Below are positions 1,861 through 18,715 of a DNA stretch of 64,000 nucleotides, piece after piece. The stretch's first letter is position 1. Each line of letters starts with the position of its first letter. The position numbers and the translations under genes were made by a program. The stretch lies in NCBI GenBank assembly GCA_051886215.1, contig JBJEXX010000016.1:4877-68876 (forward strand). Reading direction: 5' to 3'. The stretch comes from Bacilli bacterium (lineage in GTDB: Bacteria; Bacillota_I; Bacilli_A; RF39; UBA660). A model generated the notes under the pieces. The model worked only from the letters and a program-made list of their open reading frames with translations. It was not told the origin of the DNA and ran no database searches.

Positions 1861-1888
1861 AGCGATTAATATTAATTGCTTTTTTTTA
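1861..1888 (+). terminator. Rho-independent terminator after aspS
   Basis: agcgatt/aattgct stem (one G.U pair), 6-nt loop, then T8. Confidence 0.6.
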
Positions 1889-1923
1889 TGATATGTAGTA
1901 CTATGTATATAATAGGAGGGTAT

Positions 1924-3054
1924 ATGGAATCAAAAATATTAAAATCATTATTATTTATAAGTTTATTATTTGTGTTTTTTTCATGTAATAAAGTATATGC
2001 TGCAAGCAATAAATGTGAAGGTCAAAGAACTCTAAATGATGTTAGATCAAGTAATGTTGCATATGTAAGTAGAGATTCTATACTTAGAATCAGATATTCA
2101 ACATCATATAGTTCAGATTCATTAAAACATGATGGAATTAATGTTGCTTTACCAAAAGGTACAGCAGTTGAAATAACTGGGTATCCAAATGAGGATTATT
2201 ATAAAGTAACAGTTTTGTGTGATGGATATTTTTTCCTTAGGAATTACGAAGGTTATGTAATAAAATCAAGTGTTGAAAAAACTAATAAACCAATTCCACA
2301 TGATAGTGATCGTACTCTTAGTGTTGCAGATAAAACTGCAGTAATAAAAAATGCATATAACATGTATAAGGGAGGAAAAAAAGTAGCATTTGTATATCCA
2401 AGTAAAGGTTCAGATGGAAAATTAAAAAATAGAAGTGCAGGATATAATTTGGTATTAACAAATAAAAAACCAAACAACATTTCTATTAAAAATGGAAAAA
2501 AACAATATCCAATAGATTGTTCTGGATTTGTTTCAACAGTACTTGAAACGACATTCTATATTAATATGCAAACTAGCAAAAAAAGAGTTTACAGCACATG
2601 GGATTTTATCAAACAAAGTAGTGAAACATCTGAATATATACCAAGTAGTAATTCAAGCAAGGACACAAGCAAAAAGTTTTATATTGTTGATAAAGTAAAA
2701 AAAGGTGGAGATAGGAAGACTTTAGATGTTTCTAAAATACAAATAGGAGACATGATTGTTGGAGAAAAACCTGAAATTAGTAATCCAAATCATATTATGC
2801 TATACATTGGTGATGGATTAATAATGCATTCAACCGCATCAGTTAAACCAACAGGTATACATATTAACTATCTTAAAAGAGTAAAAAATGGTGTAGATAA
2901 TTATTATATACAATTAGGATCAAATAGAAGATTTACAAAAGATATAAGTATTATAAGAATAAAAAAAGATTTACCTAAAGGAAGAAGAAGAATCTATATC
3001 AATGACAATGGAACAGATTATACACGTAAAAAACTAAAGAAGGTGAATGCATGA
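1924..3054 (+). CDS. Secreted NlpC/P60-family cell-wall hydrolase with N-terminal SH3-like region
   Basis: Signal peptide MESKILKSLLFISLLFVFFSCNKVYA. Catalytic Cys in PIDCSGFVS and His in HIMLYIGDGLIMHS. RBS AGGAGGG lies 4 nt before the ATG at 1924. The TTG at 1876 from the ORF track lies inside the aspS terminator and is unlikely. Confidence 0.65.
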   Translation: MESKILKSLLFISLLFVFFSCNKVYAASNKCEGQRTLNDVRSSNVAYVSRDSILRIRYSTSYSSDSLKHDGINVALPKGTAVEITGYPNEDYYKVTVLCDGYFFLRNYEGYVIKSSVEKTNKPIPHDSDRTLSVADKTAVIKNAYNMYKGGKKVAFVYPSKGSDGKLKNRSAGYNLVLTNKKPNNISIKNGKKQYPIDCSGFVSTVLETTFYINMQTSKKRVYSTWDFIKQSSETSEYIPSSNSSKDTSKKFYIVDKVKKGGDRKTLDVSKIQIGDMIVGEKPEISNPNHIMLYIGDGLIMHSTASVKPTGIHINYLKRVKNGVDNYYIQLGSNRRFTKDISIIRIKKDLPKGRRRIYINDNGTDYTRKKLKKVNA

Positions 3055-4607
3055 AAAAAATAAAAGAAAAAAAGAATATTATAATTATTTCTAGCATAGC
3101 TTTACTTTTAATTGTTATTAGTGTAATTGCTTATAATGAAATAAAATCATATAACGAAAATAAAACATTTAATGCTTTAGTGGAAGCTAATGAAGTAGCT
3201 ACAAAATATTATGCTATAAACCAGGAAGTTTCAACATATACTTTTGGAGAAGATGAAACAACATTAATAGATAGTGAAGATACTATTCCATTAGGAACTA
3301 TTGTAACTGTAAAGGATACTATGGTGGTTAATGATAAAGAGTATTATTATGTTTCATGGAAAGAATTAGAAGAAGTAAAAGAAGCTTTTGCAGAAGCAGA
3401 AACATTAAATAAAAATATGTTATTTGAAGAAACAGTAGAATCTTTAGGTTATATACCTAATGAAAATCTTAATGAAGTAGGAATTATAATAAAAGATACT
3501 AATATTTTTCTAAAAAAAGAGGAAATATTTGAACCGACAGATAAATTATTAAACACCGGAGAAGAAACAATTATACTATTTGTTGAAGATGAATATAGTT
3601 ATGTCTTAACAAAAAAAGTTACAGAAGATAATATTGTTACGGAAGAATCAAAAGAAGAAATAATAATAGAAGAAGAACCAACACAGGAAGAAGCAATTAC
3701 TGAAGAAGAAAAAAATAAAGTAGACGAAGAAATTCCAATTGAAGAAACAGTTGGGCCTGATGATATAATATTTGACGATAGTTATTTTACAGAAACGGAA
3801 CCAGCAATAGATGATTATGAAGCAGAATTTGATGAATCTGATAATAATGAGCAAAAAGAATTAATTAAAATTAAAAATATGCAATTTGAACAAAAAACAA
3901 TAAAAACAACTCCAAATTCAAAAATAAATTTAAATCTAATAGTTAATCCAAAAGATCATGATGAAAATATAAAATATAGTTCATCAGATACAAATATTGC
4001 AAATGTTGATGAATCTGGGACAGTTACTGTTAATAATAAAATAGGTACAGTGACCATAACAGCAAAATCAGAAAAACTAACTGCAATATGTAAAATTAAA
4101 GTTAATCCTATAAAGGTTACATCAATTAGTATAAGAGATTTATCAAAAAGAAATTTTGGTATAGGAGAAGAATTACAAATAACAACAAAAGTATTACCAT
4201 TAAATGCAACAAATAAAAATGTTAGATATGTGTCTTCAAATCCAAGTGTTGCAACTGTAACACCTACAGGATTATTAATACCAAAAAAAGTAGGGGAAAC
4301 AAAAATTACTGCAATATCAACTGATACAAATAAAAAATCAACAACAAAAGTAACTGTAAAAAAGCCCACAACAAAAATTGAAATTACAAATTGTCCTAAA
4401 ACTATAAAAGTAGGAAAAACATATGATTTAAATTCAACTGCTAACAAAGAAGGATCATTTATAAGAACTTATAGTTCTAGTAATTCTGCAGTTGCAATTG
4501 TTGATAATGCCGGAATAGTAAATGCTAAAAAAGCAGGGACTGTTCAAATAACAGTAAAAACTTATAATAAATTAAAAGATACATGTACTATAAAAATAGT
4601 AAAATAA
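3051..4607 (+). CDS. Membrane-anchored surface protein with an acidic E-rich linker and about three Big_2-type Ig-like domains
   Basis: N-terminal TM segment, EEE-rich low-complexity middle, and repeated ...TVTVNNKIGTVTITAKS.../...SNPSVATVTPTGLL... motifs typical of bacterial Ig-like domain 2. ATGA overlap with the upstream gene. Confidence 0.5.
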   Translation: MKKIKEKKNIIIISSIALLLIVISVIAYNEIKSYNENKTFNALVEANEVATKYYAINQEVSTYTFGEDETTLIDSEDTIPLGTIVTVKDTMVVNDKEYYYVSWKELEEVKEAFAEAETLNKNMLFEETVESLGYIPNENLNEVGIIIKDTNIFLKKEEIFEPTDKLLNTGEETIILFVEDEYSYVLTKKVTEDNIVTEESKEEIIIEEEPTQEEAITEEEKNKVDEEIPIEETVGPDDIIFDDSYFTETEPAIDDYEAEFDESDNNEQKELIKIKNMQFEQKTIKTTPNSKINLNLIVNPKDHDENIKYSSSDTNIANVDESGTVTVNNKIGTVTITAKSEKLTAICKIKVNPIKVTSISIRDLSKRNFGIGEELQITTKVLPLNATNKNVRYVSSNPSVATVTPTGLLIPKKVGETKITAISTDTNKKSTTKVTVKKPTTKIEITNCPKTIKVGKTYDLNSTANKEGSFIRTYSSSNSAVAIVDNAGIVNAKKAGTVQITVKTYNKLKDTCTIKIVK

Positions 4608-4688
4608 GTATAATTAGAAAAATAACAATATTCACTTGATTTAATTGATTTAAAATTATATACTTAATATAGAATAGGAGTAGATAAT

Positions 4689-5108
4689 ATGAATAAGAGT
4701 GATAGAAAAAAATATACAATTAGAGGTTTAAGTGTAATAGTTATAACTTTAGTAATTATGTTAGGTATTGGTTTAGTTAGTAATATTGTATCAAATAGTT
4801 TTATTAATGATGAAGGTAATACATTTAATGCTCAGTTAGGAGATAACATTTTAATTGAAAAAATTACTGCAAGTGAAATTCATTATATAGATTCTAGTTT
4901 AATTAATATACCACTTTCAGTTCCTTATGAAGTAACTCCTAGTAATGCTACTAATCAAGATGTTTATATTATAAGTAGTGATAATTCTATAGTTGTAGTT
5001 AATGATGATAATACTATAACAGCTTTAAAAACAGGAACAGTTACTTTAACTTTAGTAGCTAATGATGGAAGTAATGTTACTACTAGTCTACAATTAGTAA
5101 TTGAATAA
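4689..5108 (+). CDS. Small membrane-anchored Big_2-domain protein
   Basis: TM anchor plus one Big_2-like segment (TPSNATNQDVYIISSDNSIVVVNDDNTITALKTGTVTLT). RBS GGAG upstream. Confidence 0.4.
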   Translation: MNKSDRKKYTIRGLSVIVITLVIMLGIGLVSNIVSNSFINDEGNTFNAQLGDNILIEKITASEIHYIDSSLINIPLSVPYEVTPSNATNQDVYIISSDNSIVVVNDDNTITALKTGTVTLTLVANDGSNVTTSLQLVIE

Positions 5109-5182: not shown

Positions 5183-6238
5183 ATGGAAAAAAAAGAAAAT
5201 AGTAAAATGTACAAAAATATTAAAAAACTATTATTTTTTGCGCTTGTTTTGACTATAGTAGCTTTTATTTTACAGTTAAAATCTAATAATGATAATAAAT
5301 ATTATTTTAGTTATAAAGCTTCTATTCCAGAAGTAAATATTGAAAAGGAAAAAGTTGGTGCATATAGAACTAGTGTTGATTACGATACTGTTTATAAGAA
5401 TCAAAATATATCTAATAAAAATGATGCAGTTGCACTAATAAAAAAAGATTCTAATATTCAAAAGCAAAAATGTAGTAATAAGGATATTTCCAGTATTGAA
5501 AATGAAATAGAAAAAAAATATGATATAGAGGCTGCTAATTTATGTGAATTAGATTTAGAAACTGCTAATAGTATAAAAAATGTGCTTGATAAAATTTATA
5601 ATGAATTTCCTAAAACTAAAGGATTTATTACAAATATATCTTTAGTTAATGCCGAAGATACTACTGGGTATATAGTTGCATTTATGCCGAGTTTTGCCTT
5701 TGCTTCTAGTAATACAATAACTACTTATCCTACGGTTAAAAAGACTCAAGTCTTATTAAATGCATCTTATTTTTTAAATTTAAGTAAATTAAAAACTTCT
5801 ATTTCTAGCGCTGCTTCTAGTGGTTGGTTTGTTCCTAATGCCAATGTTGAATCTTTAATTGCGCATGAATTTGGTCATTATTTATCTTTTTTAATAAATA
5901 TGGATGAATTTAATATGGATAGTATTTTATTGATTGAACAAAATAAATCTTCTACTTATAACAAAATGCTTAGTGCTTATAATAGTGGTGATACTGCACA
6001 AAAAATTATAAAAGAGGCCTATGATAATTATAAAAAAGATACGGGGATGGGTATTAGTTTAATTGATTTTAGAAGTAGTATATCAGAGTATGCAGTAGCA
6101 ACTGATAATAAAGGTAATTATATATATGATGAAACTATTGCGGAAGCGATTGATGACTACTATGCTAATGGTGAAGCTTCTGCGGATGCTAGTAAGTATA
6201 TTGTTAATGTTTTAAAAAATAAACTAGGAGATGAATAA
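5183..6238 (+). CDS. Membrane-anchored putative zinc metalloprotease with HExxH; possibly anthrax-lethal-factor-like (M34/ATLF)
   Basis: N-terminal TM segment. IAHEFGHYLSF is the only HExxH, and the surrounding sequence resembles ATLF-like/PPEP-type metalloproteases (HEFGH). RBS GGAGG upstream. Confidence 0.4.
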   Translation: MEKKENSKMYKNIKKLLFFALVLTIVAFILQLKSNNDNKYYFSYKASIPEVNIEKEKVGAYRTSVDYDTVYKNQNISNKNDAVALIKKDSNIQKQKCSNKDISSIENEIEKKYDIEAANLCELDLETANSIKNVLDKIYNEFPKTKGFITNISLVNAEDTTGYIVAFMPSFAFASSNTITTYPTVKKTQVLLNASYFLNLSKLKTSISSAASSGWFVPNANVESLIAHEFGHYLSFLINMDEFNMDSILLIEQNKSSTYNKMLSAYNSGDTAQKIIKEAYDNYKKDTGMGISLIDFRSSISEYAVATDNKGNYIYDETIAEAIDDYYANGEASADASKYIVNVLKNKLGDE

Positions 6239-6240
6239 TA

Positions 6241-8019
6241 GTGAAAAGAGCTACGGGTGAATTGAATTTAACAGTTGTGGTCTTGGTGGCTATTGGTGCC
6301 ATTTTGGGCTTTTTTATGCTGTTTAAAGATACTATGTTTAGTAGTGCTATGGCTCCTACTTGTTGTATTTTAAGTAAAGGTACATATAAGAATGGTATTT
6401 GTGAAACTAATGAATCATCTAAATATCAAGAATGTATGGGTGGAGGAACTATTGAATCTAGTAATAAACAAGAATCTGAAAACAAATTTATAAAAGGGAG
6501 TGATTCAATAGATAATTCTAATATTATTAATAATATTAAAGATAGTGGAGTAGAAAATAGTATTAATGGTGATCTGTCTATTTCAAATAGTGACGATAAT
6601 AGAAAAGCAGATGAAGATAATAAAGAATTAAATAAAAAATCTACAGATAATATAAAAGATATTATGTCAAATACTACAGGAAATGCTAAAGGTGAAAATA
6701 GTGGCCAAATTACTGGTGAAAATGAAGAAGAAATAAAGAATAAAGCTTCTAATGGATTGAATACAAAAGGAGATTATAGTAAAAGTAGAATTACTAATAC
6801 TACTTCTAATTATAGTTCTGATAAAAGTTCTTATACTACTACATCTACTGTAAAAAGTAATACTTCAAATTATCAAATGAATATTACTTATACATATCAA
6901 AAGAATAAATCAGGATCTTATGAATTAACAGGAATTTCGTGGAAAGAGTCCAGACCTTCAGAAATTTTAGTTAATGGTTATGAAAAAGAATTGACTGAAA
7001 ATGGTGATACTATTAAACATAGTTATAATGGTGTTTTAAAAGGACAATATAATACAGAAAAATTAAATAGTTATATTGATGAGAATGGTACTAAAATTTA
7101 TAATGAATTAAGTAATAGAGTAGTATTCTTAGATACTTATAGTGGTGATAGGATTGTTGAAAATGCTAATGGGGTGTTTATAAATCCAGGTGTTATTGTT
7201 ACTACTTGGAATTTTTTGAAAAAATCAGTTATTAATGGTGATAAATTAATTGTTACTAATAGTGAGGGTGGTAATTATAGTGTAGATGGTATTATATCCA
7301 TTAATACTGAACTTGATTTAGCATTTATTAAATTAAAAGAAAAAATAGGTGATAAGACAGAATTTGGAAATGTGTATGATTTAAAAGTAGAAGCAATTGA
7401 TTTCACTATATGTACAGATAATGATTATAAATTAGAAGTTAAATATGGTTATTTATTAAAAAGAGGTGGTTTAATAACTAGTTTAATTACTTTAGAAAGA
7501 AATGAAGAAGGTAGTCCATTATTTGATTATAATAAAAAACTTATCGGTATAAATACAGCTAACGTGTTAAAATCTTCTACTTCTATTGCTAGAAGTACTA
7601 ATTATATAAAAAATCTACAATCAAAATTAGAAAAACAGGATTTTACTAGTATTAAAGTAACCAGTTTTAAAGATTTAAAAAACAAGTATATAAATGAAAA
7701 TAATGAAACAGAAGATAATACAATACCAAAAGATATCTGGAATAAATATAAAAGAATTGGTGATGTTGAAAACACTATAACTTTAAATTTAATAAAATCT
7801 AGTTATGATGATAATATAGTATCTTTAAGATATGTTAATGATATAAGTGATTATTCTGATAATTTTGCTTTAGCGGATAATTTTATAAATAAACTTATAA
7901 AACAAGAATATAAAAAGAAACACTCTAGTACTTATAAAATTATTTATCAAAAAGGAAATAGTAAAGTTATATTACTTAGTGAATTTAATTATTTAATAAT
8001 TATTATGACAGGAGTTTAA
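6241..8019 (+). CDS. Large membrane-anchored/secreted protein with S/T/N-rich linker and a degenerate trypsin-like (S1-fold) region
   Basis: GTG start 2 nt after the upstream stop. N-terminal hydrophobic segment (coded by locally GC-rich codons). Region ...DLAFIKLKE...EEGSPLFDYNKKLIGINTA resembles Trypsin_2 domains, but the His/Ser catalytic positions are not conserved. Confidence 0.35.
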   Translation: MKRATGELNLTVVVLVAIGAILGFFMLFKDTMFSSAMAPTCCILSKGTYKNGICETNESSKYQECMGGGTIESSNKQESENKFIKGSDSIDNSNIINNIKDSGVENSINGDLSISNSDDNRKADEDNKELNKKSTDNIKDIMSNTTGNAKGENSGQITGENEEEIKNKASNGLNTKGDYSKSRITNTTSNYSSDKSSYTTTSTVKSNTSNYQMNITYTYQKNKSGSYELTGISWKESRPSEILVNGYEKELTENGDTIKHSYNGVLKGQYNTEKLNSYIDENGTKIYNELSNRVVFLDTYSGDRIVENANGVFINPGVIVTTWNFLKKSVINGDKLIVTNSEGGNYSVDGIISINTELDLAFIKLKEKIGDKTEFGNVYDLKVEAIDFTICTDNDYKLEVKYGYLLKRGGLITSLITLERNEEGSPLFDYNKKLIGINTANVLKSSTSIARSTNYIKNLQSKLEKQDFTSIKVTSFKDLKNKYINENNETEDNTIPKDIWNKYKRIGDVENTITLNLIKSSYDDNIVSLRYVNDISDYSDNFALADNFINKLIKQEYKKKHSSTYKIIYQKGNSKVILLSEFNYLIIIMTGV

Positions 8020-8020
8020 A

Positions 8021-8533
8021 ATGAATAAAAAAGAAAAAATAATTTTAACAATTATATTTATAGTAGTTATATTTATAATGGGTTTTTCTATAAAATTTAT
8101 AGTAAATTCTAATTCTTTAAAAAAATATAGTTCTGATAAAATAACCTTTAATTATGATAATTCTTGGACAGTAACTAGAAACGAAAATAATTTTTATTTG
8201 GTTGATAAGAATGGAAGTAGCATTATAATTAATATTACATCTATTGATACTGATAGCGAAAGTATGAGTGTAGAAGAAGTAAATAGTAGTATAATTTATA
8301 AGTTACTGCAAGATAATGATAAATATAAAAAAATTGCCGAAGAAAGTTGTAAAATGACTAGTGTTTATTATGATGGATATAAAACTTTACTTGAGAATGA
8401 TGCTAATCAATCTCTTATATATGTCACTATGACTAGTGATTATATTTTAACTGTTAATTATTCTGCTTTAAATAAATATTTTGATTTAGGTATTGATAGT
8501 GTAGAGAATATTGTTGGTTCTATTGCAATTTAA
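8021..8533 (+). CDS. Hypothetical membrane-anchored protein
   Basis: 170 aa with an N-terminal TM segment. Starts 1 nt after the upstream stop, so likely co-transcribed. Confidence 0.3.
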   Translation: MNKKEKIILTIIFIVVIFIMGFSIKFIVNSNSLKKYSSDKITFNYDNSWTVTRNENNFYLVDKNGSSIIINITSIDTDSESMSVEEVNSSIIYKLLQDNDKYKKIAEESCKMTSVYYDGYKTLLENDANQSLIYVTMTSDYILTVNYSALNKYFDLGIDSVENIVGSIAI

Positions 8534-8566: not shown

Positions 8567-10378
8567 GTGGTGATTATAATGAGTAGGTATAATGATAATG
8601 TTACTTTTAATACTGATAAAAAAGATGATAGTAGTTCTAAAGCTTTAAAAAAATTTTTGTTTTTTGGTTTTGGAATTATTGTAATATTAATTGTAGTAAT
8701 AGTTGTTATATTGTCTTTGGTTAATAAAAATATTGATACTAGTTTATCTAGTTTAAGTGTTGATTCAGGAATAATTAGTCCAGAATTTAAAAGTGATAAA
8801 TTAAATTATACTATTGAAACTGATTCTGATGATTTGTTTTTTACATGTAAGGCTACATCAAAAAAATCTAAAATTGATGGATGTGGAAAAACTATTAAAT
8901 TAGAAGATGACGAAAATGATATTAAAATTGTAGTTAGTTATAAAAATCAAAGTACTACATATAATTTTAAAGTTATAAAAAATAGTAAATTTGATATTCA
9001 GGTAACAGGTAATAGTGATAATTGGACTGATAAAGATATTACTTTAGTGGTAACTGCTACTTCATTAGAAAATATCCCTTTAGCGGAAATGGCTTATTCT
9101 TTTGATGATGGTGAGACTTGGCAAAAAGAAAATAAAGCAGTTTTTTCAAAAAATCAAACAGTTAAAATTAGAGTAAAAGATATAGAAGGAAATACTTCTG
9201 CAGCTTTTAAAGAAAAAATTTCTAAAATAGATAAAAATGTACCTAAAGTAAAATTATCTGTTAATAACAAAAAATTAACTGCCGTTGTTACACCTGATAA
9301 AACACCTAGTGGTTATTCTTATACTTGGTATTTAAATGGTGAAGAAATAGAAGGAGCCAAAAGTATTAATTATACTGCTAAAGAAAATGGTAAATATAAA
9401 GTTAAAGTTACTTCTAAAGTTGGAAAGAGTGTAGTAAGTGAAGAAGTTACTATAACTAGTGGTACAACTTATACAATTAATTATAATGGAAATGGTGGAG
9501 TAGATGTACCAAACGATCAAATAAAGTCTAAAGATGAAGAATTAATTATTACTAATAAAAAACCTAGTAGAGAAGGATATTCTTTTAAAGGATGGTCAGT
9601 AACTAGTGATGGAGAAGTTGATTATTTTTCTGGTGACAAATATAATTTAAATAAATCTATAATTTTATATGCAGTATGGGAGAAAAATACTTCTGTTGAA
9701 AAATATAATATTTATTATAATGCTACAGGAGGAAATAATGCTCCTAATACTCAAGTTAAAGAGCAAAATAAAGATATAACTATTAGTAATACTAAACCTA
9801 CAAAAGCAGATAGTGAATTTTTAGGTTGGGCTGTTAGTAATGGAGGAAGTGTTGTTTATACTCCAGGTGCTGTTTACAAAGATAATAAATCTATAACTTT
9901 ATATGCAGTATGGAAAAAGATGAAAACAATAACTGTTACTTATAGGGGAAATGGAGCTAATGTTACAAAATCAGCTGTTTCTTCAAGTGGTACTAATACC
10001 TTTACAATGCCTACTATCACAAGAGCTGGTTATACAGTTGTAGGTTGGGCTTATTCTCAAACTGCTACTCAGGCTAACTATACAGTAGGTCAAAAAGTAA
10101 CTTTTAATGATTCGGTTACTTTATATGCGGTTACTTATAAAAAAATTACGGCTACATTTAATAAAAATACAGCTAGTAAAATTAGTAAAAATAATGAAAG
10201 TTGTTATTTATATAATAAAGCTACATTATGTAGTGTCACTACGCCAACTATTACACCCAAATCTGGTAAAAAAGCTTTAGGTTGGTCAATATATCAAAAT
10301 GTTAGTAGTGCCTCTTTTGCGGCTAATACCAAAGTTGCTATTTCTTCTAACACGACACTTTATGCTATAACTAAATGA
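8567..10378 (+). CDS. Surface protein with Listeria-Bacteroides (Flg_new) repeats
   Basis: N-terminal TM segment, then at least three repeats of the form ...Y(T/N)I(N/Y)YNxNGG...P...K...G(Y/S)(S/T)F.GW......YAVW, characteristic of PF09479. The alternative ATG at 8579 is possibly the true start. Confidence 0.55.
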   Translation: MVIIMSRYNDNVTFNTDKKDDSSSKALKKFLFFGFGIIVILIVVIVVILSLVNKNIDTSLSSLSVDSGIISPEFKSDKLNYTIETDSDDLFFTCKATSKKSKIDGCGKTIKLEDDENDIKIVVSYKNQSTTYNFKVIKNSKFDIQVTGNSDNWTDKDITLVVTATSLENIPLAEMAYSFDDGETWQKENKAVFSKNQTVKIRVKDIEGNTSAAFKEKISKIDKNVPKVKLSVNNKKLTAVVTPDKTPSGYSYTWYLNGEEIEGAKSINYTAKENGKYKVKVTSKVGKSVVSEEVTITSGTTYTINYNGNGGVDVPNDQIKSKDEELIITNKKPSREGYSFKGWSVTSDGEVDYFSGDKYNLNKSIILYAVWEKNTSVEKYNIYYNATGGNNAPNTQVKEQNKDITISNTKPTKADSEFLGWAVSNGGSVVYTPGAVYKDNKSITLYAVWKKMKTITVTYRGNGANVTKSAVSSSGTNTFTMPTITRAGYTVVGWAYSQTATQANYTVGQKVTFNDSVTLYAVTYKKITATFNKNTASKISKNNESCYLYNKATLCSVTTPTITPKSGKKALGWSIYQNVSSASFAANTKVAISSNTTLYAITK

Positions 10379-12268: not shown

Positions 12269-12300
12269 ATTTACAAATGTTTACAATACTTAACAAATAA

Positions 12301-12322
12301 AGACAGACTATTCTGTCTTTTT
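12301..12322 (+). terminator. Rho-independent terminator after the LCP gene
   Basis: agacaga-ctat-tctgtct hairpin, then TTTT. Confidence 0.65.
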
Positions 12323-12369
12323 ATAATGTAATTTGTTATAATTATTATGATAATGAGGAGGTGTATATA

Positions 12370-14439
12370 ATGAAGAGAATAATCACATTATTTGTGTTTA
12401 GTCTACTTATTGTTATGCCTTTTTCTGTGAAAGCTGAAACTAAATATGGTTATAGTAATGTTACTGGAAGTAGCTTTAGCATTCGTAGTAGTTCTAATAG
12501 TTCTGCTTCTGTTATTGGATATTTATATGGTGGTGTAAACGTTGAAATAGTAGATTCTGCTAGTGGTAATGGCTGTGGAACATGGTATAAAATAAAATTT
12601 AATAATGGTTATGGTTGGATTTGTGGAATTAGTAATAGTGGTGCTAAAAATGTTGAACTTTATACAACACAGACTTTAAGAACAAATGAAAGAACTGCTG
12701 AGACAGATTATGAAAAAACATTACAAAATGCGGGATTTCCTTCTAGTTATTGGGATAAATTAAGCGCTCTTCATAAAGCACATCCTAATTGGAATTTTGT
12801 GGCTGATAAAACAGGTAGAGATTGGTCTTATGCTACTTGGGCAGAAACAGGAGCTGTAAGCGATGGGGATATAGATAAAAGTTTACTTTATGCTTATAAT
12901 GGAAATACAGATTTAATTGCGGGATATTTAAAGACAGACACTTATAATTATAAAACTAATAAATTTACAATGCAGGATTCTGGAGGATTTTATGCAGCTC
13001 GTCAAGAAATGGTTGCTTATTATATGGATCCAAGAAATTTTTTAAATGAGAATTTTATATTCCAATTTGAAGTGTTATCTTTTAATTCAACTTATCATAC
13101 TAAAAGTGTTATTGAAAATATTTTTGGTAGCGGTTATTTGAACCAATATGCTAGTAACTATGTGGGTGCTGGTAAATCAAAAAATGTATCAGCTGTTCAC
13201 TTGGCTACTCGTAGTGTTCAAGAAGGTTTAAATAAATCAAATTTTGTAACAAACGGTGCAGAATTTATTTATAGCGGTAGTTTATATACTTCTATTCAAG
13301 GTCAAAAGTTTAGTAATTGTTTTAATTTCTTTAATATAGGTGCATATTCTGATAATGTCAGTGCTTTACAAAATGCAGGGGTTTATGCTTGTGGTGGTGT
13401 TAATAGAAATGAAACTTCATATGGCAGGCCATGGAATAGTGTTGATAAGGCTTTACTTGGAGGAGCTGAAATAATAGGTGGTAATTATATTGCTTCTGGA
13501 CAGGATACTTTATATTTTCAAAAATATAATACAGCAAGTTATACTAAAACAGCTGTATACGGTCACCAGTATATGTCTAATATTAGTGCAGTTGCTTATG
13601 AAGGTAGCGATACATATGATTCGTATTATGCAAATGGTTTAATTAGTAGTGCAGCTTTTACTTTTGTTATTCCTGTTTATAATAATATGCCAGAAAAGAC
13701 TTCATTACCTAGCTCATTAAGTCCAAATAATTATTTAACTGGTATTAAAGTTGATGGTACTAGTATTGCTAATTTTGATGGAGATAAAACTGAAGGTTAT
13801 AAAGTAAATGTTGTTAATAGTAAAACTACTGTTAGTATTAGCACTACTACAGTGGTTGATAGTGCTAAAGTTACTATCAATAATGGCAATAGTATATCTC
13901 TTAATGTAGGAGATAATAAAATACCTATTTTAGTAACTGCAGCTAATGGAGAAAAAAGAACTTATTATATAACGATTACTAGAGAAGAAGCTAGTAATGG
14001 TTCAACAACTGATATTGAAACAACTATAAAAAATGCAGGTTATAAAATTACAGATACTTATATTGGAAATATTAGTTTAAATAATACTTTATCTACAATA
14101 AATACAAAAATAAAAAATCAAAATTCATCTGCTAATATTTCTCTAAAAGATAAATCAGGTAATAGTAAAACTACTAGTAATGTACTTGCTACTGGTGATA
14201 AATTGACAATTACTATAGGAAGTGAAGAAAAAACATATGAACTTTATGTTTATGGAGATGTTAATGGTGATGGACTTGCAAAAGCAACAGATTACATGTT
14301 AATAAAAAATCATATTATGACTAATAAAAAATTAAGTGGTGCTTATGCTAAAGCAGCTGATGTTAATAAAGATGGTAATGTTAAAGCAACAGATTATATG
14401 TTAATAAAAAATTATATTATGAAAGGAATAAGTTTTTAA
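12370..14439 (+). CDS. Secreted GH73-type N-acetylglucosaminidase (autolysin) with SH3b-like N-terminus, cadherin-like domain and C-terminal type-I dockerin
   Basis: Signal peptide. NFFNIGAYSDNV...YACGGVNRNETSYGRPWNSVDKALLGGAEIIGGNYIASGQDTLYFQKYN...YGHQYMSNIS matches the glucosaminidase (PF01832) core. The two dockerin-like repeats are GDVNGDGLAKATDYMLIKNHIM and ADVNKDGNVKATDYMLIKNYIM. RBS GAGGAGG lies 8 nt before the ATG at 12370. Confidence 0.6.
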   Translation: MKRIITLFVFSLLIVMPFSVKAETKYGYSNVTGSSFSIRSSSNSSASVIGYLYGGVNVEIVDSASGNGCGTWYKIKFNNGYGWICGISNSGAKNVELYTTQTLRTNERTAETDYEKTLQNAGFPSSYWDKLSALHKAHPNWNFVADKTGRDWSYATWAETGAVSDGDIDKSLLYAYNGNTDLIAGYLKTDTYNYKTNKFTMQDSGGFYAARQEMVAYYMDPRNFLNENFIFQFEVLSFNSTYHTKSVIENIFGSGYLNQYASNYVGAGKSKNVSAVHLATRSVQEGLNKSNFVTNGAEFIYSGSLYTSIQGQKFSNCFNFFNIGAYSDNVSALQNAGVYACGGVNRNETSYGRPWNSVDKALLGGAEIIGGNYIASGQDTLYFQKYNTASYTKTAVYGHQYMSNISAVAYEGSDTYDSYYANGLISSAAFTFVIPVYNNMPEKTSLPSSLSPNNYLTGIKVDGTSIANFDGDKTEGYKVNVVNSKTTVSISTTTVVDSAKVTINNGNSISLNVGDNKIPILVTAANGEKRTYYITITREEASNGSTTDIETTIKNAGYKITDTYIGNISLNNTLSTINTKIKNQNSSANISLKDKSGNSKTTSNVLATGDKLTITIGSEEKTYELYVYGDVNGDGLAKATDYMLIKNHIMTNKKLSGAYAKAADVNKDGNVKATDYMLIKNYIMKGISF

Positions 14440-14457
14440 TAGTAAGTAGGTGATTAT

Positions 14458-15777
14458 ATGAAAAAATATAAAATATTTAATTTATTTATATTTATAATAT
14501 GTATATTTTTTTCAATATCAATAAAAGTTAATGCTGCATCTTGGACAATTATTTCTTCTAAAGCTTCAGTAGCTAGTGGTCAAAGTTTTACAGTTAGAAT
14601 TCATGGTAATGATGTAGTAGGTCAATTTACTATAAGCGTTAATAATGGCCGTTCAAGTGAAAGTGTTGTATGGAAAGATGAAAATACCGATAGAAGTTTT
14701 ACAGTTACGGCAACTGGTAGTGGAACTGTATATGTTAAAGTTGTTGCGACCGATTGTTCTGATATTAATGGTAATCCAGTTGGAGGAAGTGACAATGTTT
14801 CAGTAAATATTATAAATAGTAATGATGATGGTTCACGAAGTAATTCATCTTCTAATAAAACTTATAGTAATACAGCTAATCAAGAATTAAGTAATAATAA
14901 TTATTTAAAAAGTTTGACTATTGATGGATATAATCTATCTCCAAGTTTTAATAAAGATGTTACGAGTTATAATGTAGAAGTAGATGAATTAAGTGAAAAA
15001 ATAAAAATAAATGCGGAAGCTGAAGATAAAACTGCTACTATTGAAGGAATTGGTGAAAAATCTTTAGAAAAAGATAATATTTTTCAAATAGTAGTAAAAG
15101 CTGAAAATGGACAAGTAAAAACATATACTATAAATGTTTTATTTAAAGATGATAATCCAATTAAAGTAAAAAAAGGCAATAAAACGTATACTCTTGTTAA
15201 AAGAAAGTCATTAATAAAAGAATTTGATGATTATAAATCAACTACTATAAAAATAAATAATCAAGAAATTCCGGCTCTATATAATAAAACTACTAAACTT
15301 ACTTTGGTTGGGTTGAGATATAAAGATAAAGTCTATTTATATAGATATAATAAGGAAACTAATACTTATGTAAGATATATAGAATATGATTTTAAAAATG
15401 TTAAATTAGTCTTATTTAAATTAAGTGATAAAATGATACCTGATGGTTATAAAGAATATACTATAAAAATAAATGGCTATAATACTAAGGTTTATAAATT
15501 AAGAAAATCATCTAAATATTCTTTGATATATGGTATGAATATAAAAACAGGAATTAAAACTCTTTATTTGCATGATTCTAAAGAAAACACTGTTCAGCGT
15601 TATACAACAGAAGCAATGACTGCTTTAAAAAATCAAAATTCTAAGTATCAAAAAATATGTATTGGATTATGTGGGGGAGTTGCTTTATTAGTTATAGTTT
15701 TATTAATTTTTATTAGTAAAAGTGATAAAAAAAGAAAAATAAAAAATAAGGTTAAAAGATATGAAAATGAAAAGTAA
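14458..15777 (+). CDS. Cell-surface protein with signal peptide, N-terminal beta-rich domain, cadherin-like domain and C-terminal TM anchor
   Basis: NNYLKSLTIDGYNLSPSFNKDVTSYNVEV...INAEAEDKTATIEG fits the cadherin-like beta-sandwich pattern. C-terminal ICIGLCGGVALLVIVLLIFISKS followed by a K/R-rich tail. Confidence 0.4.
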   Translation: MKKYKIFNLFIFIICIFFSISIKVNAASWTIISSKASVASGQSFTVRIHGNDVVGQFTISVNNGRSSESVVWKDENTDRSFTVTATGSGTVYVKVVATDCSDINGNPVGGSDNVSVNIINSNDDGSRSNSSSNKTYSNTANQELSNNNYLKSLTIDGYNLSPSFNKDVTSYNVEVDELSEKIKINAEAEDKTATIEGIGEKSLEKDNIFQIVVKAENGQVKTYTINVLFKDDNPIKVKKGNKTYTLVKRKSLIKEFDDYKSTTIKINNQEIPALYNKTTKLTLVGLRYKDKVYLYRYNKETNTYVRYIEYDFKNVKLVLFKLSDKMIPDGYKEYTIKINGYNTKVYKLRKSSKYSLIYGMNIKTGIKTLYLHDSKENTVQRYTTEAMTALKNQNSKYQKICIGLCGGVALLVIVLLIFISKSDKKRKIKNKVKRYENEK

Positions 15778-15800: not shown

Positions 15801-15863
15801 AGGTTTTATATATTGAGATTAATTTTTTTTCTTCATACAATATATTGAAAGTAGGTGGATTGT

Positions 15864-16049
15864 ATGAAAGAATTTTTAAAGAGATTAAAGGATCCTATAG
15901 TAATTTCATCAATATTTTCTTTAATATATATATTTATTGCTCCTAAACTTAATTTACCTGATTGGACATTAGTTTCTTCTCAATTTTTAGCTATTATATA
16001 TGCAATATTTGGTATTACTAATAATCCTACTGATAAAAATTGTTATTAG
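15864..16049 (+). CDS. Small two-TM protein (61 aa), holin-like
   Basis: Two hydrophobic segments with a polar C-terminus. RBS AGGTGG 5 nt upstream. Ends 12 nt before the signal-less M23 peptidase gene. Confidence 0.35.
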   Translation: MKEFLKRLKDPIVISSIFSLIYIFIAPKLNLPDWTLVSSQFLAIIYAIFGITNNPTDKNCY

Positions 16050-16061
16050 GAGGTGATTAAG

Positions 16062-16874
16062 ATGAAAAAAGGACAAACTAGTATCAGAGGAGGTATAGAG
16101 GACTTTTTATGTCCTTTTACTGATATGTATATAACTCAAGGTAGTGGTGGAAATGGTAGTCATGCTGGAACTATGGCCAATGATATTCGTGGTAAAATAG
16201 TAGGAGTTAAGGCTCCGTATTATGCTCCATGTACTTTGAAGTGTTTAAAAATATATCCTGAGAATGGTCAAATTATGTGGCAGTCAACAAATAAAGTAAG
16301 ATTTGCTAACGGAAAGATTAATTATGCAACTATAATGACAGCTCATGACAATACAGTAGATTCATACGTAGGACAAATAGTAAAACAAGGCCAACAATTA
16401 GGAAATATGGGAAATAAAGGAAATGCTAGTGGAGTGCATTGTCATATAGAAATTGAACAAGGAAATGATACTTCTTGGAAGAAAAATAGCTATGGTAATT
16501 ATTGTTTTAATAATGAAGTTGATACTGACAGTTGCTATTTTGTAGATAATACAAATATTTTATATGGTAGTGGTGGAAATTGGAAATATCTTAAAGATGT
16601 AAATGTTGATACTGAGAATAATTATATAAACTTATCTCCTAGTATTTCATCTTGGAGATTTTATAATATTACGGATGCTCCGATTAAAAAGAATGCTATT
16701 GGATATTTAAATCCTAAAAAATTTGGTGGATTATCTTATAAAATATTAGAATATCGTGATAATAATAATACCGTTGTTATAAATACTGTTCAATTTGGCA
16801 AAGTAAAAATTTTTATTTATAATACCGCATCTACAATAACAAATAGTCCTAAATATAAATCAGGTAATTATTGA
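16062..16874 (+). CDS. M23-family (LytM-like) peptidoglycan endopeptidase with C-terminal putative wall-binding domain; no signal peptide
   Basis: H..D (GSHAGTMAND) and HxH (GVHCHIEIE) motifs of peptidase M23. The N-terminus MKKGQTSIRGG is not hydrophobic. RBS AGGAGGTG upstream. Confidence 0.6.
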   Translation: MKKGQTSIRGGIEDFLCPFTDMYITQGSGGNGSHAGTMANDIRGKIVGVKAPYYAPCTLKCLKIYPENGQIMWQSTNKVRFANGKINYATIMTAHDNTVDSYVGQIVKQGQQLGNMGNKGNASGVHCHIEIEQGNDTSWKKNSYGNYCFNNEVDTDSCYFVDNTNILYGSGGNWKYLKDVNVDTENNYINLSPSISSWRFYNITDAPIKKNAIGYLNPKKFGGLSYKILEYRDNNNTVVINTVQFGKVKIFIYNTASTITNSPKYKSGNY

Positions 16875-16930: not shown

Positions 16931-18715
16931 ATGAGAAAAGAAGAATTAAAGAAATTAGTTATTTCTAAAATATTTACTAAAAATGAACAAAAGTTTATAA
17001 ATGAGAAAGAACTGGATAGAATTATTTTTAAAGTGTTTTCAAATGAACAAGATATGGATTTTATATATAATATATTAGAAGATAATAATGTTAAAATAAA
17101 AAAATCAACTTCATATGATGAAGAAAATATGTCTATGAATTCTATCATAAAAGCATATTTGAATGAAATTTCTAAATATCCATTATTGACAAAAGAAGAA
17201 GAGTATTATTATTCAAAACTTGCTCAACAAGGTGATCAAAAAGCTTTTGAAATTATGAATAACTGTAATTTAAGGTTAGTGGTATCAATTGCGAAGAAAT
17301 ATGTTAATAGGAGTAGTTTGGATTTTGAAGATTTAATACAAGAAGGTAATATTGGCCTTATGAAAGCTATAAATAAATTTGATCCAGATAAAGGTAATAA
17401 GTTTTCAACTTATGCTACGTTTTGGATTAAACAAAATATAACTAGAGCTATGTATGATAATGGTAAAACTATAAGAATTCCTGTTCATGAACAAGAAAAA
17501 TTAAATAAAATTAAGCTAATTAATGAAACTTCTTTTTCAAAATTAGGTAGAAATATGACAATGAGAGAGCTCATAATTACTTATTATTCAAATTATTCTA
17601 GTATGAAAGATTTAATTACTAAAAATAATATAAATGAAAATGTAGATAGTTGTATAAATGTTATACCAGAGTTTTTAAAAGAAAATGTTAATTTAGATGA
17701 AATATCTAAAAAGCATTCAATATCAATCATAAAATTAAGGAAATTATCAGATGTTATAAATAGAGAAATCAAAATGACAGAGGAGTCTTTTACAAGGGAG
17801 AATATTCTATCTTTACATGTGCCAATTAATAATGAAGATGATAATTCTTTGTTAGAAAACTTTGTGGAGGATAAAAATACGAATTTATCTTTGGTGGTGG
17901 AGTCTTCTTTGTCTGTAGAAGAGATAAAAAAAGAAATCATTAATACTTTATCTAAAGAAGATAGTTATGACTCTGAAGGAAATTGTATTATTGGATCTAG
18001 AAAATTCACATATAGTCAACAACAGCAAATTTCAAAGTTTTATACAGAAGTCGTTAAAATTTGTCGTAAGAATAATATTGATGAATTAACAAATCAATTA
18101 GTAGAAGAAAATGAGGAATTTTATAATATAAAAATTTTAAATGATGAAATGAATAAAATTAATTATTATTATGAATTTAAAACTAAATATGAAGATATAA
18201 AAAATAAGTATTTAGATAGATTAGAAGCAATTTTAAAGATAAATAATATTGATACTGACTATATAAAGCTGTGTAAACAACAATTGTTAAAAAGATTAAA
18301 ATCAGATAATATTAATGATATTATAAATAGTAATCCTAAATTTATTAATCTTGTCGATATTCAGAATAATTTGTTTAGCGATATTATATATATATTACAA
18401 GCTAATTGTAATATAAAAATTGATTATTTATTAGAGTTTTGTAAATTTCATAATATAGTAAATAATCCTAAAAATGTTAATAATATATTTTGTTCTGTTT
18501 CAAATAATAAAACATTTGAACAAAATTACGAAATGTATTTAACTGCTTATAAAGAGATAAGAAATATTGATGTTTTAGTAAGAAGATTAGGATTAAATGA
18601 TAGAATTTATACTTTGGAAGAAATAGGTGAAATTTATGGTTGTACACGGGAAAGAGTTCGACAATTAGAAACTAAAGGTTTACGATTAGTTAAAAACAAA
18701 ATTAAAAAGATATAA
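16931..18715 (+). CDS. Sigma-70 family RNA polymerase sigma factor (594 aa) with a ~300-aa insertion between region 3 and region 4
   Basis: Region 1.2/2: SMNSIIKAYLNEISKYPLLTKEEE...DLIQEGNIGLMKAINKFDPDKGNKFSTYATFWIKQNITRAM. Region 3: TIRIPVHEQEKLNKI. Region 4 HTH only at the extreme C-terminus: YTLEEIGEIYGCTRERVRQLETKGLRLVKNKI. Confidence 0.7.
   Translation: MRKEELKKLVISKIFTKNEQKFINEKELDRIIFKVFSNEQDMDFIYNILEDNNVKIKKSTSYDEENMSMNSIIKAYLNEISKYPLLTKEEEYYYSKLAQQGDQKAFEIMNNCNLRLVVSIAKKYVNRSSLDFEDLIQEGNIGLMKAINKFDPDKGNKFSTYATFWIKQNITRAMYDNGKTIRIPVHEQEKLNKIKLINETSFSKLGRNMTMRELIITYYSNYSSMKDLITKNNINENVDSCINVIPEFLKENVNLDEISKKHSISIIKLRKLSDVINREIKMTEESFTRENILSLHVPINNEDDNSLLENFVEDKNTNLSLVVESSLSVEEIKKEIINTLSKEDSYDSEGNCIIGSRKFTYSQQQQISKFYTEVVKICRKNNIDELTNQLVEENEEFYNIKILNDEMNKINYYYEFKTKYEDIKNKYLDRLEAILKINNIDTDYIKLCKQQLLKRLKSDNINDIINSNPKFINLVDIQNNLFSDIIYILQANCNIKIDYLLEFCKFHNIVNNPKNVNNIFCSVSNNKTFEQNYEMYLTAYKEIRNIDVLVRRLGLNDRIYTLEEIGEIYGCTRERVRQLETKGLRLVKNKIKKI

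Follow-up and report, generated by a model that had tools for sequence, protein, structure and literature searches.

The locus described here raises the question of how a secreted peptidoglycan hydrolase might be held at the surface of the cell that produces it. It lies in a stretch of 64,000 nucleotides (nt), referred to below as the window, from a metagenome-assembled genome (MAG) of an uncultured 'Bacilli' bacterium (lineage RF39, UBA660; assembly GCA_051886215.1, contig JBJEXX010000016.1, positions 4,877 to 68,876 of the forward strand). Two adjacent open reading frames (ORFs) are concerned: ORF A, which encodes a GH73-like peptidoglycan hydrolase with a C-terminal dockerin, and ORF B, which encodes a membrane-anchored surface protein. 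We consider it likely that they form a two-gene unit by which the cell would hold a peptidoglycan N-acetylglucosaminidase at its own surface, through docking of the dockerin on the N-terminal domain (N-domain) of ORF B. What carries this reading is the domain anatomy of the two proteins, the intact Ca-binding positions of the dockerin, an aligned catalytic Glu in the enzyme, the adjacency of the genes in most related loci, the presence of a cohesin in most orthologous neighbours, and the co-variation of dockerin and N-domain types.

In the proposed arrangement, ORF A would be exported through its signal peptide, and its dockerin would dock, presumably in a Ca-dependent manner, on the membrane-distal N-terminal beta-sandwich of ORF B. 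The latter would be held by a C-terminal transmembrane (TM) helix, with a linker, a cadherin-like domain and a beta-hairpin domain serving as its stalk. The GH73-like core would be kept at the producer's wall instead of diffusing off, an SH3_3 domain may add wall contact, and the tethered enzyme may act in wall remodelling or in the separation of daughter cells.

Domain anatomy of ORF A and ORF B

Both genes lie where the initial annotation had placed them. The features of ORF A are as follows; the residue numbers of its Pfam domains count from a GTG at 12361 and equal the 689-residue numbering plus three.

12370..14439, + strand: ORF A, predicted secreted GH73-like peptidoglycan hydrolase with a C-terminal dockerin, 689 amino acids (aa)
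12370..12435, + strand: signal peptide, MKRIITLFVFSLLIVMPFSVKA, cleaved before ET; read from the sequence without a predictor
12481..12621, + strand: SH3_3 (bacterial SH3) domain; Pfam PF08239, residues 41-87, E 2.3e-8, 34.5 bits against a cut-off of 27
12736..13692, + strand: GH73-like glucosaminidase core, from FPSSYW to IPVYNNMP; phmmer against GH73 enzymes in the PDB
13222-13224, + strand: codon of the catalytic Glu, E285 (RSVQ-E285-GL); alignment to Atl
13762..13986, + strand: cadherin-like beta-sandwich domain; Pfam PF12733, residues 468-542, E 4.3e-10, 40.3 bits against a cut-off of 24.2
14011..14250, + strand: module of about 80 residues just before the dockerin
14251..14418, + strand: dockerin with two Ca-loop and helix repeats; Pfam PF00404
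14257-14319, + strand: dockerin repeat 1, DVNGDGLAKATDYMLIKNHIM; read from the sequence
14359-14421, + strand: dockerin repeat 2, DVNKDGNVKATDYMLIKNYIM; read from the sequence

The type-I dockerin repeats proposed in the initial annotation are borne out by the Pfam profile Dockerin_1, which matches residues 631-686 (E 9.3e-17, 61.4 bits against a cut-off of 22.9) over positions 1-56 of its 57, and by phmmer against the PDB, where this segment matches many solved dockerins, including 8x39, 3ul4 and 2ccl. The Ca-binding positions, on which the earlier proposal depended, are also intact: loop positions 1, 3, 5 and 12 are D/N/D/D in both repeats (D-V-N-G-D-G-L-A-K-A-T-D and D-V-N-K-D-G-N-V-K-A-T-D), and the two helices are near-identical (KATDYMLIKNHIM and KATDYMLIKNYIM). 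Loop position 9 is Lys in both repeats (L-A-K and N-V-K), which is unusual, relatives having mostly Ser, Asp, Thr or Asn at this position. A regular expression for dockerin loops, run in six frames over the 64-kb window, returns these two repeats alone, and a protein search with the dockerin segment of ORF A by itself returned short fragments at contig edges and nothing else.

The catalytic core was compared with solved enzymes by phmmer, and its closest matches are the glucosaminidase of Staphylococcus aureus Atl (6fxo, E 1.7e-7) and Clostridium perfringens Acp (5wqw, E 9.7e-6), followed by 6u0o (E 9e-4) and AtlE (4pi7, E 1.6e-3). Its motifs are YYMDPRNF, RSVQ-E285-GL, GQDTLYFQKYN and HQYM. 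In the alignment to Atl, E285 pairs with the Glu of ALLETGNG, which we take to be the catalytic general acid of GH73, while GQDTLYFQKYN pairs with GQNTLYKMRWN and HQYM with HQYAT in alignments to GH73 enzymes of the PDB. E285 (E288 in the 692-aa numbering) is invariant across 26 family members, and the family also keeps the motifs YYMDPRNF, TLYFQK and HQYM. The Pfam Glucosaminidase profile (PF01832) gives no match to ORF A at E<=0.1. The designation of the core as a GH73-like glucosaminidase, of a divergent branch, is nevertheless justified, because it resembles solved GH73 enzymes with the catalytic Glu aligned; the earlier description of a GH73 autolysin thus stands by similarity to solved structures but not by the Pfam profile.

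Among the remaining parts of ORF A, the cadherin-like domain is also found by the family hidden Markov model (HMM; E 1.8e-12), and the SH3_3 region gives weak PDB matches to 2kyb and 2kt8. The module of about 80 residues aligns in all 26 sequences of the ORF A family alignment (A4) and in the enzymes of two further loci (L001 and L002); it has no Pfam match and is possibly an X-module-like support of the dockerin. In the signal peptide, A25 (692-aa numbering) is invariant in the same alignment. Homologues of ORF A are 686-701 aa long and have the same architecture, consistent with a 689-aa product.

The features of ORF B are the following.

14458..15777, + strand: ORF B, predicted type-I membrane anchor protein, 439 aa
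14458..14535, + strand: signal peptide, residues 1-26 (…SISIKVNA, cleaved before ASW); read from the sequence without a predictor
14536..14823, + strand: N-domain, residues 27-122, a 96-residue all-beta sandwich of the 'short type'; AlphaFold2 (AF2) model with a predicted local distance difference test (pLDDT) score of 95.5
14824..14895, + strand: Ser/Asn-rich low-complexity linker; read from the sequence
14896..15147, + strand: cadherin-like beta-sandwich domain; Pfam PF12733, E 4.8e-9, 37.0 bits against a cut-off of 24.2
15148..15648, + strand: juxtamembrane ectodomain, residues 231-397 (about 170 residues); AF2, pLDDT 92.5
15655..15774, + strand: TM helix (ICIGLCGGVALLVIVLLIFI, residues 400-419, nt 15655-15714) and Lys-rich cytoplasmic tail; read from the sequence without a TM predictor

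AF2, Pfam and the sequence agree with the earlier view of the neighbour as a surface protein with a beta-rich N-domain, a cadherin-like domain and a C-terminal TM anchor. Signal peptide, extracellular module and C-terminal TM helix, as read from hydrophobic stretches and AxA-like sites, follow the layout of an anchoring scaffoldin, and the signal peptide is conserved among homologues. The juxtamembrane ectodomain, modelled as 14 beta-strands in hairpins with a terminal helix, is conserved more strongly than any other region in the anchor family (Y358, G365, Y370 and Q380 are invariant); Foldseek finds no structural relative of it in the PDB (best E 0.085, TM<=0.22), and phmmer of the whole of ORF B against the PDB gives no meaningful match.

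The borders of the unit are marked by three short elements.

12299..12320, + strand: terminator-like hairpin with a 9-bp stem and 3 GC pairs, after the upstream LCP gene; pattern match only
12355..12361, + strand: ribosome-binding site (RBS) GAGGAGG of ORF A, with a spacer of 8 nt to ATG 12370; read from the sequence
14449..14453, + strand: RBS-like AGGTG of ORF B; read from the sequence

ATG 12370 is the most likely start of ORF A, given that the alternative GTG at 12361 overlaps the GAGGAGG and is ruled out on that ground. The gap of 18 nt between the stop of ORF A and the start of ORF B suggests that the two are co-transcribed, and the hairpin, as a pattern match only, may divide the LCP gene from the unit.

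Conservation of the pair and co-variation of its types

Related loci were collected with the ORF A alignment, taking one genome per species. At least 594 species-representative loci encode relatives of ORF A, all in gut and rumen MAGs, assigned to Bacilli, 'Tenericutes/Mycoplasma', Clostridium sp. CAG:710, Lachnospiraceae, Oscillospiraceae, Acutalibacteraceae and Ruminococcus. The 80 loci that were fetched are distributed as follows.

ORF B-family gene directly after the dockerin gene, mostly at 3-30 nt: 70/80 loci
ORF B-family gene after a gap of 1.6 kb: 1/80 loci
Locus ending at a contig edge: 3/80 loci
No ORF B-family gene found: 6/80 loci

The six loci without an adjacent anchor gene (L051, L056, L059, L071, L072 and L076) belong to Clostridia (Ruminococcus, Oscillospiraceae and others); a partner, if there is any, must therefore be encoded elsewhere in these genomes.

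The pair recurs in unrelated contexts. Homologues of ORF B sit directly 3' of a gene for a Dockerin_1 protein in L001, beside polysaccharide-synthesis genes, and in L002/L003, beside murG-murB-ftsQ-ftsA-ftsZ; ORF A is 36% and 34% identical to the upstream Dockerin_1 proteins of L001 and L002 (E 3e-120 and 5e-62, respectively). In the window, the genes around the pair encode LCP, M23, VanW and FtsW/RodA proteins.

Most of the orthologous neighbours carry a recognizable cohesin. The Pfam Cohesin profile matches 46 of 73 downstream N-terminal regions at E<=0.01 (best 2.2e-9), and the N-domain of P0034, the anchor of L001, exceeds the gathering score of that profile with 31.7 bits. The N-domain of ORF B occupies the position that the Pfam cohesin holds in most orthologues.

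Dockerin signatures and N-domain types were found to go together, as set out here.

Short N-domain (the window's type), dockerin DY..IKN.IM: 9 loci
Short N-domain, dockerin DF..IKKYML: 2 loci
Cohesin N-domain, dockerin DLL.VQKHIL-like: 49 loci
P0020/L022/L053 N-domain (46-47% identical to each other), dockerin KLD[YA]L..LR.YY: 3 loci
P0022/P0114 N-domain, dockerin NSADLLRMRQHL: 2 loci

Two distinct enzyme scaffolds bear the NSADLLRMRQHL signature, and in L085 the scaffold is a Pfam-positive Glucosaminidase. In this locus (929-2992), flanked by LCP and PASTA genes, P0114, a homologue of the anchor, has as its partner a different, PF01832-positive glucosaminidase, whose first dockerin repeat is intact and whose second is devoid of the Ca-binding residues (YMGYNTINSANLL…).

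Over 51 pairs, the distance between dockerins correlates more strongly with the distance between N-domains (r=0.65) than with that between the enzymes' own catalytic cores (0.36). The partial Mantel correlation, controlling for the core, is 0.58, a value reached by 0 of 2000 permutations. Furthermore, in a crude neighbour-joining (NJ) tree of the catalytic core, loci with the short N-domain and the DY dockerin fall in at least four separate places among loci with cohesin and DLL dockerin. Finally, the window itself holds one dockerin and one domain of the short N-type in its 64 kb, and the two are adjacent.

Nature of the N-domain and rival explanations

AF2 predicts the N-domain of ORF B as an all-beta fold with nine strand elements (pLDDT 95.5). 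The initial annotation had proposed a cohesin-like receptor and a cohesin-dockerin tether, and it is on the identity of this domain that the proposal meets a difficulty. A search for cohesin (PF00963) in 14458..15777 came back empty: Pfam and NCBIfam together return the cadherin-like domain only, with no cohesin at E<=0.1, and the Pfam Cohesin profile gives no match at E<=0.01 to the N-terminal 146 aa of ORF B. A profile of the short-type N-domains (A1) finds no cohesin in the PDB, its best match being the immunoglobulin (Ig) domain of T4 Hoc (E 5.7e-4), and hhalign aligns A1 with Big_12 repeat alignments at 76-94% (scores 32-44, 80-87 columns). The Foldseek top 50 for the N-domain contain no cohesin and no match below E 1e-3; they consist of Ig-like sandwiches of a generic kind (complement MG, PapD-like, intimin, PKD and CARDB). 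These results weigh against the proposed tether, as do the six loci with no ORF B-family gene and the following limits of the comparative evidence. The catalytic-core tree is crude, and the C-terminal segment of ORF B in the distance test was cut at fixed offsets. Since the two modules are encoded side by side, gene A encoding the dockerin at its 3' end and gene B the N-domain at its 5' end, linkage contributes to the correlation, and the co-variation could partly reflect linkage or a shared recombination history, not selection for binding. The census of cohesins and dockerins covers 64 kb, and others may lie elsewhere in the genome.

How the short type relates to the longer, cohesin-type N-domains was examined with an alignment of the latter (A2), whose profile finds solved cohesins in the PDB (1g1k and 2vn5, E 2e-4) and, weakly, the NagJ cohesin (E 0.015). 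With hhalign, A1 aligns to A2 at 95.3% probability (E 2.4e-8, score 47.8, 82 columns), while the control scores are 10.1±2.0 for shuffled columns (maximum 16.4), 12.6 for the reversed profile and 11.5 for the cadherin-like domain of the same proteins. The controls rule out composition alone as the cause of this likeness. It is, however, not specific to cohesins, because Big_12 repeats match A1 about as well; A2 itself scores <=1.6% against Big_12. In an exhaustive search, the A1 profile retrieves ORF B-like proteins of about 400-500 aa together with weak matches to long tandem Big_12/SprB arrays (Pfam names). Given that none of the Pfam, PDB-profile and Foldseek tests returns the N-domain as a cohesin, and that it resembles Big_12 about as closely as it does the family's cohesins, 'cohesin-like receptor' is here a statement about presumed function, not a family assignment; in the window's lineage the domain probably works like a cohesin. 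Of the tether first proposed, then, the general case is strengthened by the pair in 70/80 loci, by the Pfam cohesins in 46/73 and by the co-varying types, while the cohesin identity of the window's own N-domain is not recovered.

A more specific possibility, which we put forward tentatively, is that the receptor in the window's lineage is a compact, 96-residue Big_12-like Ig domain that has taken the cohesin's place at the tip of the anchor, accompanied by its matching DY..IKN.IM dockerin. In that case gene A's 3' end and gene B's 5' end would form a swappable specificity cassette with at least five matched types. If true, dockerins would have in this Ig domain a partner that belongs to a new fold class.

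The same failures of the N-domain in the Pfam, PDB-profile and Foldseek tests, its resemblance to the tandem Ig repeats of Big_12, the six related loci without a neighbour and the restriction of the inspection to 64 kb of the genome would also suit an explanation in which adjacency reflects a shared envelope function only. The N-domain would then be an ordinary, Big_12-like Ig spacer, and the dockerin would bind a cohesin encoded elsewhere or be a Ca-stabilised tail. We regard this as unlikely, since it has to contend with the 46/73 orthologous neighbours that have a Pfam cohesin in the corresponding place, with dockerin signatures and N-domain types that switch together in at least five types, with the partial Mantel correlation of 0.58, and with a window devoid of any other cohesin-like or dockerin sequence. 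A different kind of association, through the cadherin-like (PF12733) domains that both proteins share, and that the upstream surface protein at 8567-10378 carries as well, seems highly improbable to us: the 599-aa enzyme of L002 and the 420-432-aa enzymes of L084 and L087 have no cadherin-like domain and only a Dockerin_1, all enzymes that lack the former retain the dockerin, and the co-variation of dockerin and N-domain would be left unexplained.

It may also be asked whether a real tether would serve the cell's own wall. The enzyme could instead be a surface weapon or foraging enzyme, acting on the walls of other bacteria or on host or dietary glycans that contain N-acetylglucosamine in the gut. 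The metagenomes that yielded the relatives are all from gut or rumen, cohesin-dockerin display classically serves the degradation of extracellular substrates, and among the genes that follow the pair is one for an M23 peptidase with matches to phage endolysin families. Against these points, the closest solved relatives, Atl, AtlE and Acp, are described as autolysins; conservation as a single copy per locus across more than 590 species points to a core function; and the contexts consist of division and wall-synthesis genes, both elsewhere (murG-murB-ftsQAZ in L002/L003, LCP and PASTA in L085) and here (LCP, VanW, FtsW/RodA). We therefore judge this explanation quite improbable. On the preferred reading, a dedicated tether for the producer's own wall enzyme, the neighbouring genes of the window (NlpC/P60, LCP, M23, VanW, FtsW/RodA), like the dcw cluster of L002/L003 and the LCP and PASTA genes of L085, fit a role in wall remodelling or division.

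Surrounding genes, known systems and significance

The window is AT-rich, with a GC content of about 20-30%. Its other genes near the pair are listed below.

1876-3054: NlpC/P60 hydrolase
3051-5108: Big_2 proteins
5183-8533, + strand: three consecutive ORFs of 351, 592 and 170 aa without a Pfam match, between the Big_2 surface proteins and the Flg_new protein
8567-10378, + strand: surface protein of 603 aa with an N-terminal TM segment, a PKD-like stretch and four Listeria-Bacteroides (Flg_new) repeats
15855-16049, + strand: ORF of 64 aa with two hydrophobic segments and no family match, 3 nt before the M23 peptidase
16053-16874, + strand: M23 peptidase matching the phage endolysin PHROGs phrog_9066 (E 1.6e-17) and phrog_11037 (E 2.1e-28)
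16931-18715, + strand: sigma-70 family protein of 594 aa, with regions 1.2 and 2 at residues 73-177 and region 4 at residues 547-588

The protein at 8567-10378 has a third cadherin-like domain, at residues ~62-140, which the family HMM detects (E 1.9e-12) and Pfam misses; the module is thus common to three consecutive envelope genes, as ORF A and ORF B each carry one. Directly after ORF B, the 64-aa ORF and the M23 peptidase form a holin/endolysin-like arrangement. An origin of the ORF A-ORF B pair itself in a prophage lysis module was considered and dropped, because PHROGs gave no matches for either protein. In the sigma-70 family protein, an insertion of about 370 residues, so far unexplained, separates region 2 from region 4.

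Cohesin-dockerin pairs have mostly been studied as scaffolds of polysaccharide-degrading complexes. Those of the C. perfringens glycoside hydrolase toxins NagH and NagJ join secreted enzymes to one another, without a membrane anchor, and the substrates are host glycans. What they (PDB 2jh2, 2ozn) share with the locus described here is the use of cohesin and dockerin outside cellulose degradation. Atl/AtlE and Acp (6fxo, 4pi7, 5wqw) share with ORF A a homologous core, the aligned catalytic Glu and surface retention through accessory modules; they are retained by direct wall-binding repeats, whereas ORF A would use a protein-protein plug and socket on a membrane protein. As for Big_12 (PF19078), it occurs in long tandem arrays in giant cargo proteins of the type IX secretion system, unlike the window's N-domain, which is single, N-terminal and below Pfam significance for Big_12.

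A dockerin on a GH73 enzyme, rather than on a cellulosomal one, is present as the initial annotation stated, but it is less unusual than was implied. In the relevant passage of Ze et al. (2015, PMC4611034, citing Wegmann et al. 2014), Ruminococcus bicirculans is credited with one dockerin and one cohesin, associated with a GH73 enzyme, and GH73 appears among the R. albus glycoside hydrolase families in a dockerin/CBM37 table (PMC4081043). R. bicirculans is a non-cellulolytic gut Firmicute with, on that account, one GH73 dockerin and one cohesin, and Ruminococcus, Oscillospiraceae and Lachnospiraceae are among the relatives found here. The window differs from the system so described in coming from an uncultured 'Bacilli' MAG, in its short receptor that is not detected as a cohesin and in its DY..IKN.IM dockerin helix. 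TM-anchored anchoring scaffoldins with a single cohesin have been described in cellulosome- and amylosome-like systems (PMC11557425; PMC13463774). With their signal peptide, cohesin and C-terminal TM helix, and in displaying a dockerin partner on the membrane, they are laid out much as is proposed for ORF B; they serve many dockerin enzymes on plant or starch substrates, whereas ORF B appears to serve a single peptidoglycan hydrolase and to be coupled to it genetically, and has a cadherin-like domain as well as a beta-hairpin domain that is unmatched. The locus hence varies a known kind of arrangement, a GH73-dockerin enzyme paired with a membrane anchor, in having a short receptor that escapes cohesin detection. 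A literature search of incomplete coverage found no paper on the characterisation of this pair, on its breadth (at least 594 species loci) or on its matched types.

The plug and socket of this locus appears to be dedicated to one cell-wall hydrolase on a membrane stalk, in a two-gene unit that is conserved in hundreds of uncultured gut Bacillota, including 'Bacilli' lineages with small genomes. If the preferred reading is true, the short receptor variant could broaden what dockerins bind, and the matched dockerin and receptor types could be orthogonal protein-protein connectors. For the bacteria themselves, it would mean a widespread form of spatial control over an autolysin that dispenses with wall-binding repeats.

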